A stretch of 61,727 bases of DNA, counting the filler, from Actinomycetota bacterium (GTDB lineage: Bacteria > Actinomycetota > CADDZG01 > JAHWKV01 > JAOPZY01), in NCBI GenBank assembly GCA_025963875.1. It is 6 parts of 6 records of this genome, joined end to end, with 100 filler letters (N's around TTAATTAATTAA, not from the genome) between each part and the next. Parts side by side here need not be neighbours in the genome. Positions count along the whole stretch, not along the records: positions 43,165 to 54,911 come from JAOPZY010000078.1; 5 more parts are not named here. One strand, given 5' to 3'. Below the pieces are notes generated by a model. That model did no database searches. It saw only the letters and a program-made list of their open reading frames with translations, and was not told where the DNA came from. Below are positions 43,165 through 46,166 of the stretch, piece after piece. Made by a program: the position numbers and the translations under genes. Each line of letters opens with the position of its first letter. The stretch's first letter is position 1.

Positions 43165-43180
43165 CGCCGAACGGTTCGGG

Positions 43181-43203
43181 GGCGGAAGGGTCACCCTTCC
43201 GCC
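43181..43203. repeat. Perfect 10-bp hairpin
   Basis: GGCGGAAGGG-TCA-CCCTTCCGCC, followed by ...CACCCCT. Confidence 0.85.
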
Positions 43204-43295
43204 ATCCGCACCCCTGCCGGGTCACCGGCGATCGGCGAGGAACCGCTTATCGGCGTCCTCTCCAGGAGGGCAAAGGTAAGTGGTCAGGGCATTAG

Positions 43296-43321
43296 CGTGG
43301 GGAGGGCAAGCCCTCCCCACG
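43296..43321. repeat. Perfect 12-bp hairpin (candidate element end/origin)
   Basis: CGTGGGGAGGGC-AA-GCCCTCCCCACG, preceded by TTAG and followed by GACCCCT. Confidence 0.85.
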
Positions 43322-43447
43322 GACCCCTCCCAGTCCCGTTGCGGGATCGTCTGTCGGGCCGGACAAGCCGGCCCTCGCGGGGACTCGGGGTAATCCCGCG
43401 GTCATAGGATCCTGCCTCCAGCCGGTCGCGAGGAGGGGAGGACCACT

Positions 43448-45067
43448 GTGGGTGCGATCTCGATCAACGATGTCCTTGAGGGCCACGTGGCCATGGAGCT
43501 GTCCTGCGTCGACCCCCTGTACCTGAACGCCTACGTCCCCAACCTGCAGGTGGGCGGCCAGGTCGTGCAGTTCCTGGTGAGCCACCGGGGCAATCCCGTC
43601 CCCTCCCCGGCGCTGTTCGAGCAGAACGGCAACCGCTTCCGCAAGGCGGTCAAGGACTTCGCGGCGCAGTGGGAGATCCCGGTTCTCAGGTTGAAGAAGC
43701 CGGACCGGTCCCGCTTCGACGACCGCAAGCTGGACCACGTGATGCCCTACTTGGAGGCGGCGCAGCGCAAGAGCCGCTTCGGGGTGGTGGCGATCGTGGC
43801 GGCCCAGGAGATGCAATGGGTCTTCGGGGCCAAGAACCGCCCCGACAAGGCGGGAACGGGGGCGGTGTGGTTCGAGTTCGTGAAGGAGGAGCGCAGGATC
43901 GGCGTGTGGTACTTCTACCTGCTGGACGCCGAGTTCGGGCCCGCCTTCATCAAGATCTGCTCCTACTTCCCCTACCCGGCCAAGGTTTGGTGCAACGGCC
44001 ATGAGTGGGCCAAGCGCCAGGCCGCCAAGGCGGGGATCGTATTCACCGCCCTGGCCAACGGATTTGCCTCCTGCGACGATCCCGCGGGCCTGCAGGCGAT
44101 CTGCGACTCCTTCGGCCCCGGCGACATCCAGGCGTTCTTCGACCACTGGTCGGGTGTCATCCCCACGCCTTTCACGCCGGCGGACCGGGCGGCCGGCTAC
44201 TGGTGGGAGCTGTCCATGCGTCAGGTGGAGGTCTCTCAGACCCTCGTTTTTGACGACCCCCGCCGCGCCCGGTCGTTCTTCGAGGCCCTGGTGGCCGACA
44301 ACGTGGGCATCGGCCGCCCCGAGTCCGTGTCGATGATCTTCGGCCGGCAGGTGCGCAAGACGACCACCGAGCCCTTCGTGGGGCGGATCTTCTGCCCGGG
44401 CACCGAGGTGCACATGGACTTCTCTTACAAGCACAGCCGGGTCAAGCAGTACTTGAAGGAAGGGAGGGCGCTGCGTACCGAGACCGTGATCAACAAGCCC
44501 TGGGACCTCAACATCCTGGCCCGCATCGAGCACCTGCCCGAGCTGGTTGACAAGGCCCGCCAGGTCAACGCCCGTCTGCTTATGATCGAACGTGCCGGCC
44601 AGGGCTGTGCCATCGGCTCTGCACTCTTTGAGCGCATCCACCAGCCCTACGTACGGGAGGGCCAACGAACCGGGGCCTTTCGCTTCGGGGACCCACGCGC
44701 CATGGCCCTGGCCGGCGCCCTGTGCCTGATGGTCCACGCCGTCACTGGCTTCACCAACAAGAGCCTTCGCGGGCGGGTTGCCGGACTCCTCGGTGCGGAC
44801 TACAGCGCCAACCAGATGAGCTACGACCTCCGCCGCCTGAAGCTCCACGGTCTCATTGAGCGACTTCCCGGAACCAACACCTACACGACTACCGCCGACG
44901 GGATCCGGGTGGCCGTCTTCTTCACCAAGCTCCAGCATCGGCTCCTGGCCCCATTGCTGGCAGCCGACCGCCCACCCGCATCTCCCGAGCTTCGCTGCGC
45001 TTTGGCCACCATCGACAAGCAGGTCAAGGAGTACGTCGCCAACGCGCGTCTGGGCAAGGCAGCTTGA
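43448..45067 (+). CDS. Uncharacterised protein with Rep_trans/CRI-like motifs and a C-terminal winged HTH (putative transposase/replicase)
   Basis: GGAGGGGAGG RBS before GTG. CVDPLYLN, LSMRQVEVS, YKHSRVKQYLKEGRALRTETVIN, and wHTH QMSYDLRRLKLHGLIERLPGTNTY. Confidence 0.8.
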   Translation: MGAISINDVLEGHVAMELSCVDPLYLNAYVPNLQVGGQVVQFLVSHRGNPVPSPALFEQNGNRFRKAVKDFAAQWEIPVLRLKKPDRSRFDDRKLDHVMPYLEAAQRKSRFGVVAIVAAQEMQWVFGAKNRPDKAGTGAVWFEFVKEERRIGVWYFYLLDAEFGPAFIKICSYFPYPAKVWCNGHEWAKRQAAKAGIVFTALANGFASCDDPAGLQAICDSFGPGDIQAFFDHWSGVIPTPFTPADRAAGYWWELSMRQVEVSQTLVFDDPRRARSFFEALVADNVGIGRPESVSMIFGRQVRKTTTEPFVGRIFCPGTEVHMDFSYKHSRVKQYLKEGRALRTETVINKPWDLNILARIEHLPELVDKARQVNARLLMIERAGQGCAIGSALFERIHQPYVREGQRTGAFRFGDPRAMALAGALCLMVHAVTGFTNKSLRGRVAGLLGADYSANQMSYDLRRLKLHGLIERLPGTNTYTTTADGIRVAVFFTKLQHRLLAPLLAADRPPASPELRCALATIDKQVKEYVANARLGKAA

Positions 45068-45116
45068 CGAACTTGTCACAACGTCAAGAGTCTTCAACAC
45101 CAAGTGGGTCTAGGTT

Positions 45117-46166
45117 TCACGCCTGGGCAAGGACGGCGGTGAGGTCCACCGACGGCGGGCGCTCGAGCTGGGCGAAGGTGCAGGAGGCCGGGTCGCGGTC
45201 GGGCCTCCAGCGCCGGAAGTGCGTGACGTGGCGGAAGCGCTGGCCCTCCATGTAATCGTAGGCCACCTCGACGACCAGCTCCGGGCGGAGTGGCTCCCAG
45301 GACTGATCCTTGCCGTGGCTCCAGCGTGACGGCTCGCCGGGCAGCCGCTCGAACTCACCCTCCGGCGCCCACGGGTGGGAATCGCCCGGGTGCAGGCGGT
45401 ACGGGGCGAGCTCGTCGGTCAGGCGCTTGCGCTCGGCGGCCGCGAACGACGCCGCGACGCCCACCGGCCACAGCCCTCCGCCCTCGTCGTAGAGGCCGAG
45501 CATGAGCGAGCCCACGCCGTCGCCCGCCTTGTGCCAGCGGAACCCGGCGACCACGCAGTCGGCCGTGCGCTCGTGCTTGATCTTGAACATCACCCGGCGA
45601 TCCTCGACGTAGCGGATCTCGGGCGGCTTGGCGATCACCCCGTCGAGGCCCGCCCCTTCGAAGAGGTGGAACCACTCCCGGGCCGTGTCGATCGAGTCGG
45701 TGACCGGTGCCAGGTAGACGGGCGGCTTGACCCCCCTCAAAGCGTCCTGGAGCACCGCTCGCCGCTCGGAGAAGGGCTCGTCCATGAGGGAGCGGTCGCC
45801 GAGGGCGAGCAGGTCGAAGGCGACGAAAGCGGCAGGGGTCTCGGCGGCGAGCAGCTTGATCCTGGAGGCGGCGGGATGGATCCGTTGCTGGAGGGCGTCG
45901 AACTCCAGCCGGCCCTCCAGCACGAGGATGATCTCGCCGTCGACGACGCAGCGCTCCGGGAGCTCCCGCTTCACCGCCTCGACGATGTCGGGGAAGTAGC
46001 GGGTGAGCGGGCGCTCGTTGCGGCTTCCCAGCTCGACCTCGTCGCCGTCGCGGAACACCAGGGCGCGGAAGCCGTCGAACTTCGGTTCGTAGAAGGCGCC
46101 GGGAGGGATGTCGGCCACGAGCTTGGCGAGCATCGGCTTGACGGGGGGCCTGACGGGCAGGTTCAC
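45117..46166 (-). CDS. ligC: ATP-dependent DNA ligase LigC
   Basis: PMLAK, YEPKFDGFR, DGEI, AFDLL, DGVIAK, KIKHERTADCVV, RWRPDR. Confidence 0.93.
   Translation of the reverse strand: MNLPVRPPVKPMLAKLVADIPPGAFYEPKFDGFRALVFRDGDEVELGSRNERPLTRYFPDIVEAVKRELPERCVVDGEIILVLEGRLEFDALQQRIHPAASRIKLLAAETPAAFVAFDLLALGDRSLMDEPFSERRAVLQDALRGVKPPVYLAPVTDSIDTAREWFHLFEGAGLDGVIAKPPEIRYVEDRRVMFKIKHERTADCVVAGFRWHKAGDGVGSLMLGLYDEGGGLWPVGVAASFAAAERKRLTDELAPYRLHPGDSHPWAPEGEFERLPGEPSRWSHGKDQSWEPLRPELVVEVAYDYMEGQRFRHVTHFRRWRPDRDPASCTFAQLERPPSVDLTAVLAQA

Follow-up and report, generated by a model that had tools for sequence, protein, structure and literature searches.

Conserved hairpins at the left end of an insertion sequence encoding a protein with a predicted TBP-like fold in an Actinomycetota genome

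The window analysed in this work is the whole stretch of 61,727 nucleotides from an Actinomycetota bacterium (assembly GCA_025963875.1), in which an earlier note had described a multi-branched structured leader upstream of a Rep-like gene. The structured leader (43292/43296-43447) belongs to an insertion sequence, of which it forms the non-coding left end: the family includes near-identical multi-copy units with shared ends and unrelated flanks, and the copy in the window has the same ends. Selection acts on two hairpins in this left end (H1 at the tip and H2 further inside), on a C-rich motif, and on the tetranucleotides at the boundaries. The closing stem proposed to cover the Shine-Dalgarno (SD) run of the gene and two inner stems are coincidences of GC-rich sequence. 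For H1, we lean on balance towards a DNA-level signal for end recognition and cleavage. The coordinates of all features are listed in Table 1.

Copies, ends, and target sites of the insertion sequence

The gene is multi-copy in long-read genomes, with six loci in one chromosome, eight loci in another genome, and four loci in a third. In each of four genomes, the copies share 99.8-100% identity over 1746-1784 bp and lie in unrelated flanks (5/5, 3/3, 1/1, and 1/1). One copy in a fifth genome is ~20% different from the other six and the third copy in a further genome is 78% identical, therefore more than one lineage can be present in a genome. The identity between copies starts at TTAG, which is followed by CG and a G-rich hairpin, and stops at CTAG ~46 bases past the stop codon. 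Both ends of the window copy match the family consensus, with TTAG at 43292-43295, the hairpin from 43296, and the right tip at 45100-45113. A contig of sequencing run X2 diverges from the window directly after 45114, and a 98%-identical copy with different flanks was identified in a metagenome (L086). The window's own genome contains one full copy and a weak 36% match elsewhere (residues 347-443). No inverted repeat between the left and right ends was found among the 25 longest of the 47 inverted pairs in the window copy. A search for non-autonomous derivatives did not identify solo ends, as the 111-nt left end of L026 occurs six times in its genome, which are its six full copies. No Logan contig bridges both flanks, so no empty site was seen. 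One read joint connects 44020 to 44810 in a single run, with a side (20) too short to be trusted.

The family is large. Among 8000 scored candidates, 7886 were retained at E<=0.001, and 9421 representatives of 50%-identity clusters were found at the same threshold. The 120 best homologues exhibit no domain and their sole name is 'hypothetical protein'. Many homologues are located on contigs of 1.8-2.2 kb. Relatives were also identified in 26 plasmid records. In the 25 that were listed, the match is a 'hypothetical' or 'uncharacterized protein', is unannotated, or is (in one record, at 23.6% identity) an ArsR family regulator. The family is not confined to Actinomycetota, since plasmid relatives (35-58% identity) are carried by large plasmids not only of Rhodococcus and Mycobacterium but also of Burkholderia, Paraburkholderia, and Caballeronia. 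One Mycobacterium plasmid has five matching places. A full-text literature search, whose coverage lies outside subscription journals, found no description of this family or of a Rep_trans-type transposase.

The tetranucleotides at the two boundaries differ. The left tetranucleotide at 121 unique sites is TTAG (109 sites), CTAG (5), or another sequence (7, some of which may be pattern errors). The right tetranucleotide at 92 unique right ends is CTAG (88) or CTAC (4). A 4-bp target duplication is excluded by the difference between the left (mostly TTAG) and right (CTAG) tetranucleotides. A 3-bp duplication of TAG, or none, is possible on insertion; the end trinucleotides are unequal in 4 of the 76 elements with both ends.

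The left flank exhibits a one-sided motif from -17 to -1 (A.TTC.G.G.C....CA before TTAG, loci L006-L165), where A at -1 is found in 75%, C at -2 in 73%, C at -7 in 75%, and T at -14 in 64%. The right flank does not exhibit sequence preference. Such asymmetric targeting is typical of transposons that move as a single strand. The 77 unique right ends have conserved motifs and no consensus structure. Complementarity between flanks and the element's own ends is equal to that with the flanks of other copies (longest match 5.48 vs 5.47 and 4.52 vs 4.57), and no guide-like pairing was detected. Insertion seems to favour sites next to the ends of other mobile DNA, and YTAG may be rare outside such ends in these GC-rich genomes.

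Many left flanks look like the end of another transposon or of a miniature derivative, and several can be recognised as a transposon end. Upstream of L064, CTAG and TTAG enclose a unit of ~95 bp whose inverted ends are imperfect. The flanks of L012, L048, and L074 are the 3' end of a homologous gene. At the right end, L008, L012, L022, and L069 carry a tandem duplication of the 10-25 bases that precede CTAG, in which the first copy has no final TAG; slippage or imprecise termination could be the origin of these duplications.

Conserved and non-conserved parts of the left end

The stems were assessed in alignment A2, which consists of 93 distinct left ends. The 125 loci gave 91 distinct left ends, from which the false start L085 was removed and to which the window, L086, and L087 were added. 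Contigs that begin inside the gene and loci without a recognisable tip (L031, L062, L078, and L083) were left out. L031 and L062 have neither tip hairpin nor C-rich motif, resemble other left ends from H2 onward only, and look 5'-truncated.

All complementary segments described in the earlier note are present in the window. The arms CGTGGGGAGGG and CCCTCCCCACG occupy 43296-43321, CCCCTCC (43324-43330) is complementary to GGAGGGG (43432-43438), and the inner complementarities are TCCCG/CGGGA (43334-43346), GGGCCGG/CCGGCCC (43356-43374), and CGCGGG/CCCGCG (43376-43400). The first hairpin, described as having 12 bp, does have 12 complementary bases per arm with two bases between the arms, which is effectively an 11-bp stem with the 4-nt loop CAAG. 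The multi-branched leader of five stems is not supported as a whole: H1 and H2 are conserved and covary, whereas the closing stem and the other two inner stems are paired in only 51-62% of cells.

In A2, H1 is paired in 96.8% of cells, and compensatory changes occur at five of its 11 pairs (in 28 and 30 sequences for two of these pairs and in nine each for two more). H2 is paired in 92.5% of cells and three of its seven pairs changed on both sides, one of them in 15 sequences. The SD segment is missing from 80 of the 93 left ends, and in the 13 that have it 61.5% of the closing-stem cells are paired. TCCCG/CGGGA and CGCGGG/CCCGCG are paired in 50.8% and 56.3% of cells. H1 and H2 were the only stems predicted by RNAalifold on the 93 left ends. 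The covariation score of the structure in the earlier note is 0.119 compared with 0.055 in shuffles (0/500 as high), and this excess is due to H1 and H2.

H1 lies directly 3' of the boundary tetranucleotide in every aligned left end. Its stem has at least four pairing-preserving versions, including GGGAGGGGGG, GGGGGGAGGG, and GTGGGGAGGG. The family consensus of its loop is CAGG, in which C and the final G are at least 90% conserved, and the A of the H2 loop is conserved as well. G-U and A-C mismatch cells are equally frequent in H1 and H2 together (13 vs 13), thus nothing points to selection that acts on the plus-strand RNA alone. The same C-T mismatch occurs in 34 of the 93 left ends at columns 82/94 of A2, within H2, and is a recurrent imperfection rather than random decay.

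Folding energy was compared with 200 dinucleotide shuffles. The stretch 43290-43455 folds at -90.6 kcal/mol compared with -78.3 +/- 4.2 (z -2.94, 2/200 as good), whereas the stretch without H1 (43322-43455) folds at -66.0 compared with -63.4 +/- 4.3 kcal/mol (z -0.60, 50/200 as good). The folding excess that had been expected of the leader is therefore found for the whole stretch and is due to H1, because the leader without H1 equals shuffles. As single-stranded DNA (ssDNA), H1 alone is exceptional on the top strand (z -3.0, 1/200) and on the bottom strand (z -3.3, 0/200). H2 alone in the window sequence is unexceptional (z -1.1, 26/200 and z -1.8, 8/200).

The Rfam search suggested for a leader RNA family returned nothing near a gathering score, as the best of the 12 matches to 43166-43700 at E<=10 has 21 bits against a gathering score of 97 and all 12 are far below threshold. 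A hairpin at the start codon of the common ~130-nt left ends was also considered and rejected, with 63.4% of cells paired and 23 and 27 of 500 shuffles as high.

All left ends have the conserved C-rich motif, whether or not they carry the SD. The 5' arm of H1 is a possible pairing partner of this motif; 85.8% of cells in the resulting helix are paired, and pair 13/40 is GC in 31, GU in 31, AU in 30, and other in one sequence. This helix has 42 cells changed on both sides compared with 0-4 in slid registers. The slid registers are still 70-86% paired. Descent alone may explain this pairing, since the H1 types are clades and a G-run can pair with a C-run whatever the register.

The SD run (43430-43442) lies within a ~45-nt segment that is confined to the window, L086, L087, L088, L116, and L118. 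Another group of long leaders carries a different insert. The closing stem is absent from the minimum-energy and centroid structures of the window leader, where the SD pairs with the distal CCCCTCC at a probability of 0.00 and with the near pyrimidine tract (43410-43419) instead. Across the six sequences with the segment, the SD is paired at 0.70-0.90, with the 45 nt just upstream at 0.63-0.88 and with the distal CCCCTCC at 0.00-0.04. The exception is L033, in which the distal C-rich motif pairs with the G-run before the start at a probability of 0.94. The SD pairing of the window is 0.70 compared with 0.68 +/- 0.12 after shuffling of the upstream leader (47% of 100 as high). Similar values were obtained for L087 (0.70 vs 0.70) and L088 (0.78 vs 0.74), and only L118 and L116 exceed their shuffles (5% and 3% of 100 as high). 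The SD is paired because a G-rich SD lies in a C-rich leader, which is an effect of composition. The SD and its surroundings are a lineage-specific insertion into the leader, with no sign of a specially selected translational switch.

Table 1. Positions of the insertion sequence, its parts, and the adjoining repeat, counted along the window
Feature	Position	Strand	Description
Left flank repeat	43166..43294	+	Outside the element; separate multi-copy repeat ending ..GGTCAGGGCA
TTAG boundary tetranucleotide	43292..43295	+	Between-copy identity within genomes begins here; target sequence or TAG duplication
Insertion sequence	43296..45113	+	1818 bp (~1.82 kb): left end, one gene, right end; no terminal inverted repeats
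H1 tip hairpin	43296..43321	+	11-bp stem, loop CAAG, abuts TTAG; proposed end-recognition/cleavage hairpin
C-rich motif GGACCCCTCCC (family consensus GGCCYCCYCCC)	43321..43331	+	Includes the CCCCTCC of the earlier note
CTGTC (family consensus TTGTC)	43351..43355	+	Just 5' of H2; same pentamer in the same orientation in the right end
H2 hairpin GGGCCGG/CCGGCCC	43356..43374	+	Loop ACAAG; conserved family-wide
Lineage-specific part of the leader	43376..43447	+	CGCGGG/CCCGCG stem, pyrimidine tract 43410-43419, SD GAGGAGGGGAGGA 43430-43442; absent in 80/93 left ends
Putative transposase gene, 539 aa	43448..45067	+	TBP-like saddle (~residues 15-385) and winged helix (~390-510)
Right-end motif AACTTGTCACAA	45070..45081	+	Directly 3' of the stop codon; columns at least 90% conserved in 77 unique right ends
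Right-end tip CCAAGTGGGTCTAG	45100..45113	+	Element terminates in CTAG

The encoded protein and the proposed function of the tip hairpin

Sequence searches of the 539-aa protein against Pfam, NCBIfam, PHROG, and the PDB gave no match apart from a weak C-terminal helix-turn-helix (HTH), which is its only Pfam match at E<=1. A search of residues 1-390 against the named clusters of the ESM Atlas gave no usable match. An AlphaFold model built with 28 diverse members was obtained with a pLDDT of 84.9 and a pTM of 0.81. Residues 3-385 of this model align to an entire archaeal TATA-binding protein (TBP) with Z 9.1 and a root mean square deviation of 4.0 over 177/189 residues, and further TBPs align with Z 7.3-8.8. 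The winged helix at residues 390-510 matches an HxlR-type regulator with Z 10.2. Foldseek found no match in the PDB at E<=0.001; of its ten best rows by E-value, those with the highest probability belong to the Rep_trans initiators 4cij and 4cwe. The search of BFVD gave six matches at E<=0.001, which are an unnamed protein (2e-6), TBPs (3e-4 to 5e-4), and an accession series that includes an inovirus Rep_trans protein; the entry 'GST REP [Inoviridae]' was found at E 2.9e-3. A model of the N-terminal domain alone (alignment A3, 33 sequences, 64-89% identity) has a pLDDT of 62, falls below 50 at residues 253-385, and is too poor for a structure search.

Rep_trans enzymes have a TBP fold according to PMC13107129. 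The same paper describes archaeal Rep-Arvir proteins with a TBP-like domain, a winged helix, and a hairpin origin, whose structure hits include the BFVD entries A0A2N9QVX7 and A0A345MNV4, both also hit here. In PMC4797284, the catalytic Tyr of Rep_trans enzymes is placed on a beta-strand between R189 and K193 and three carboxylates are placed on separate strands; together with PMC5714925, it gives an active-site Tyr with R at -2, K at +2, and the motif YxKxxE. In our family, K333 and Y335 are invariant, K337 is nearly invariant, and all three are in the predicted strand 330-337. D22, E121, and E261 are invariant, E345 is nearly invariant, and these residues are in four other predicted strands. 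The predicted structure and these conserved residues suggest that the 539-aa protein may be a TBP-fold tyrosine nuclease, with Y335 in K333-Q-Y335-x-K337 as the proposed nucleophile. It is called Rep_trans-like here by fold and motif, and not a member of the family, because it has no PF02486 sequence match. The description of the gene as Rep-like was thus borne out at the level of the fold, by the TBP-like saddle and the structure matches to Rep_trans and inovirus Rep proteins.

A cut site at H1 is favoured because the element has no inverted repeats, its targeting is one-sided, its right tetranucleotide is constant, a covarying hairpin lies at its boundary, and its enzyme would be a Rep-like nuclease. 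An origin structure in ssDNA was among the alternatives raised in the earlier note; the covarying hairpin at the tip of the element and the Rep-like fold favour it for H1. The origin hairpins of Rep proteins and the end hairpins of IS200/IS605 present nick sites. By analogy, cleavage at H1 would belong to a single-stranded or rolling-circle route. H1 may be extruded from duplex DNA or formed in ssDNA, and its 5' foot would present the junction between YTAG and CG for nicking. A second cut, 3' of the CTAG at the right end, would release the element as a single strand, which would re-insert 3' of YTAG. H2 and the TTGTC motifs in both ends are predicted to be the likely binding sites of the winged-helix domain.

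A broader reading can be offered tentatively, and we hold it with some doubt. The left end would be the origin-like end of a new class of bacterial transposon, in which a TBP-fold, Rep_trans-like tyrosine nuclease cuts YTAG at the foot of a top-strand hairpin and the helix between the C-rich motif and the 5' arm of H1 acts as a two-state switch that exposes or hides the junction. As part of this doubtful reading, the class would be driven without a DDE, DEDD, HUH, serine, or tyrosine-recombinase enzyme. If the main reading of H1 given above holds, thousands of sequence clusters named 'hypothetical protein' would be one insertion-sequence family that breaks assemblies and is missed by current annotation pipelines, and the Rep_trans/TBP fold would join the short list of folds that move transposons. 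The element ends also offer a concrete substrate, which is YTAG beside an 11-bp hairpin with natural compensatory variants, and the analysis separates the selected features of the leader from GC-rich coincidence.

Several findings weigh against cleavage by a Rep_trans-like enzyme at H1. Known Rep_trans origins are nicked in the hairpin loop, whereas the boundary here is at the hairpin foot. The hairpin is present at the left end only, and the right end has no conserved structure. An RNA hairpin, or a dimer-binding site in duplex DNA, would lead one to expect compensatory changes in a perfect palindrome just as much. One RNA library has a 151-nt contig that spans 43356-43506, including H2, where DNA carry-over is possible. 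On the protein side, neither the 539-aa protein nor 28 family members match Rep_trans in Pfam. PF02486 finds nothing across the window's genome, while its B. subtilis control is positive. A PDB search with the family profile gave 11 chains at E 0.087 or weaker, none of which is a Rep. The matches to 4cij and 4cwe are weak (probability 0.66-0.85, E 0.017-0.026, TM 0.16-0.35), and no solved Rep_trans chain appears in the top 50 VIA rows, each with Z of at least 7.0. In a comparison of the active-site motifs, the spacing to the last acidic residue is unlike that of RepD. Neither a circular or excised form nor a right-to-left junction was found in the Logan contigs of reads.

The first alternative is a function at the RNA level, where H1 would be an insulator or terminator-like hairpin against read-through from the flank and H2 would stabilise or regulate the 5' untranslated region of the transposase mRNA. 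Both hairpins precede the gene on its coding strand and fold strongly as RNA, and other insertion sequences shield their transposase genes from outside transcription. The helix between the C-rich motif and the arm of H1 is rich in G-U (31 and 35 at two pairs), which makes this helix specific to the top strand. The RNA-library contig described above is weak evidence in the same direction. H2 may be transcribed because this contig covers it; the RNA-library contigs (3 records, depth 3-7) do not demonstrate transcription. Against this alternative, H1 has no U-tract and no terminator was placed there. The scan of 43166-45300 for sigma-70 promoters and intrinsic terminators found no promoter and one terminator-like site inside the gene, which is within shuffle expectation. 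The equal G-U and A-C cells in H1 and H2 and the lack of an Rfam family match also argue against it. Furthermore, every copy has H1 at the element boundary, a position that a hairpin acting purely in transcription would not need. We consider an RNA-level function unlikely.

The second alternative is a double-stranded operator, where H1 and H2 would be unfolded palindromes bound by winged-helix dimers for synapsis or autorepression and mirrored changes in the half-sites would mimic covariation. The C-terminal HxlR-type winged helix, the perfect palindromes of H1 and H2, and the strand-symmetric mismatch types agree with such a site, as does a third copy of the C-rich arm after H1 that resembles the iterons beside Rep origins. 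On the other side, the conserved H1 loop (CAGG) and the conserved A of the H2 loop are unusual for the spacers of dimer sites. The half-site sequence also varies freely provided that pairing is kept (GGGAGGGGGG, GGGGGGAGGG, GTGGGGAGGG, and others), and the right end has no such palindrome, so the two ends would have to be bound differently. We consider this explanation quite improbable.

Least of all can the model of the earlier note be sustained, in which a closing stem between 43324-43330 and 43432-43438 covers the SD and silences translation from read-through transcripts: the 7-nt complementarity, the distal pairing in L033 (0.94), and the SD pairing of L118 and L116 above most shuffles speak for it, but it is highly improbable given an unconserved stem (80/93 left ends without the SD segment, 61.5% paired in the other 13), distal pairing of 0.00 in the window and up to 0.04 with its five closest relatives included, SD pairing at the level of shuffles in the window, L087, and L088, a leader that equals shuffles without H1, and a C-rich motif that is conserved where left ends have no SD.

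Returning to H1 as a DNA-level signal, the element can be compared with known systems. It is similar to IS200/IS605 in its lack of terminal inverted repeats, the conserved hairpin near the end, the insertion directly 3' of a short specific sequence, the preference for one flank, and, on the side of our element, the constant right tetranucleotide. It differs in that the enzyme is not a ~150-aa Y1 HUH TnpA (no Pfam or NCBIfam match, TBP-like fold). IS200/IS605 have subterminal hairpins at both ends, whereas the hairpin here is at the left only (77 unique right ends). The cleavage junction here abuts the hairpin foot and the left-flank motif is ~17 nt compared with 4-5.

The Rep_trans group (pT181 RepC/RepD, RepSTK1, inovirus Reps, and MOB_T relaxases), as described in PMC4797284 and PMC5714925, shares with our protein the TBP-like pseudo-symmetric beta-sheet fold, a DNA-binding HTH domain after the catalytic domain, and a GC-rich hairpin as the cis site. 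Our protein may also resemble this group in its conserved Tyr in a predicted strand with basic residues at -2 and +2 and in its conserved carboxylates on separate predicted strands. In the consulted passages of PMC5714925 and PMC13107129, no Rep_trans protein is described as a transposase. Our protein lacks a PF02486 sequence match, is encoded by a ~1.8-kb multi-copy chromosomal element and not by a plasmid, phage, or conjugative element, and would cut at the hairpin foot and not in the loop. Rep-Arvir (DUF7845) of archaeal viruses and plasmids is built in the same way, with a TBP-like catalytic domain at the N-terminus and a MarR-like winged helix after it. PMC13107129 also reports a nearby DNA hairpin as the essential cis site, a relation to Rep_trans by structure only, and BFVD entries that are shared with our search. 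In contrast to Rep-Arvir, our family is bacterial (Actinomycetota and others), chromosomal, and transposon-like, has no Pfam DUF7845 match, and has its hairpin upstream of the gene at the tip of the element.

IS91/ISCR and Helitrons also have unlike ends, insertion beside a fixed tetranucleotide, and one hairpin end, and the tandem duplications at the right tip of L008, L012, L022, and L069 could reflect sloppy termination. However, they are moved by HUH Y2 enzymes, none of which was found here with Pfam, and their hairpin is at the terminating end whereas ours is at the gene-proximal left end. The family differs from the bridge-RNA elements IS110/IS1111 in having no DEDD domain (Pfam) and no guide complementarity that matches the flanks. 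Transposase leaders that sequester the ribosome-binding site are similar in that a G-rich SD can pair with upstream pyrimidine tracts; the pairing here is at the level of composition and is unconserved.

Genomic setting and minor observations

The window consists of contigs chained via linkers of 44 N, TTAATTAATTAA, and 44 N. The region studied is near the start of contig C147 (131 bases in), and the genome consists of 273 contigs and is 94.6% complete. The 129 bases upstream of the element (43166-43294) are a repeat with its own 9-bp hairpin (43181-43203). These bases also open contig C179 (C179:2-130, 99% identity), and a partial copy with 84% identity was identified on C30 (6742-6815). In run X1, the summed depth of the repeat is 213 compared with ~25-40 for the insertion sequence (~6-8x). 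This repeat broke the assembly at the contig start. No Rfam match was found for it, and it could represent one end of a different mobile element, or else a miniature derivative. The end of the repeat fits the preferred left-flank target motif of the element family, and another of its copies continues into TTAG without the element (loose end after 43297).

Two further observations concern the element itself. A 603-codon open frame was found on the minus strand (43292-45103), antisense to the element; its openness is its sole support, and it is probably a shadow frame of GC-rich sequence. In L014, ~40 nt past the stop codon, a right end abuts a left end via a single TTAG, which may be a tandem pair, an assembled circle junction, or a repeat artefact.

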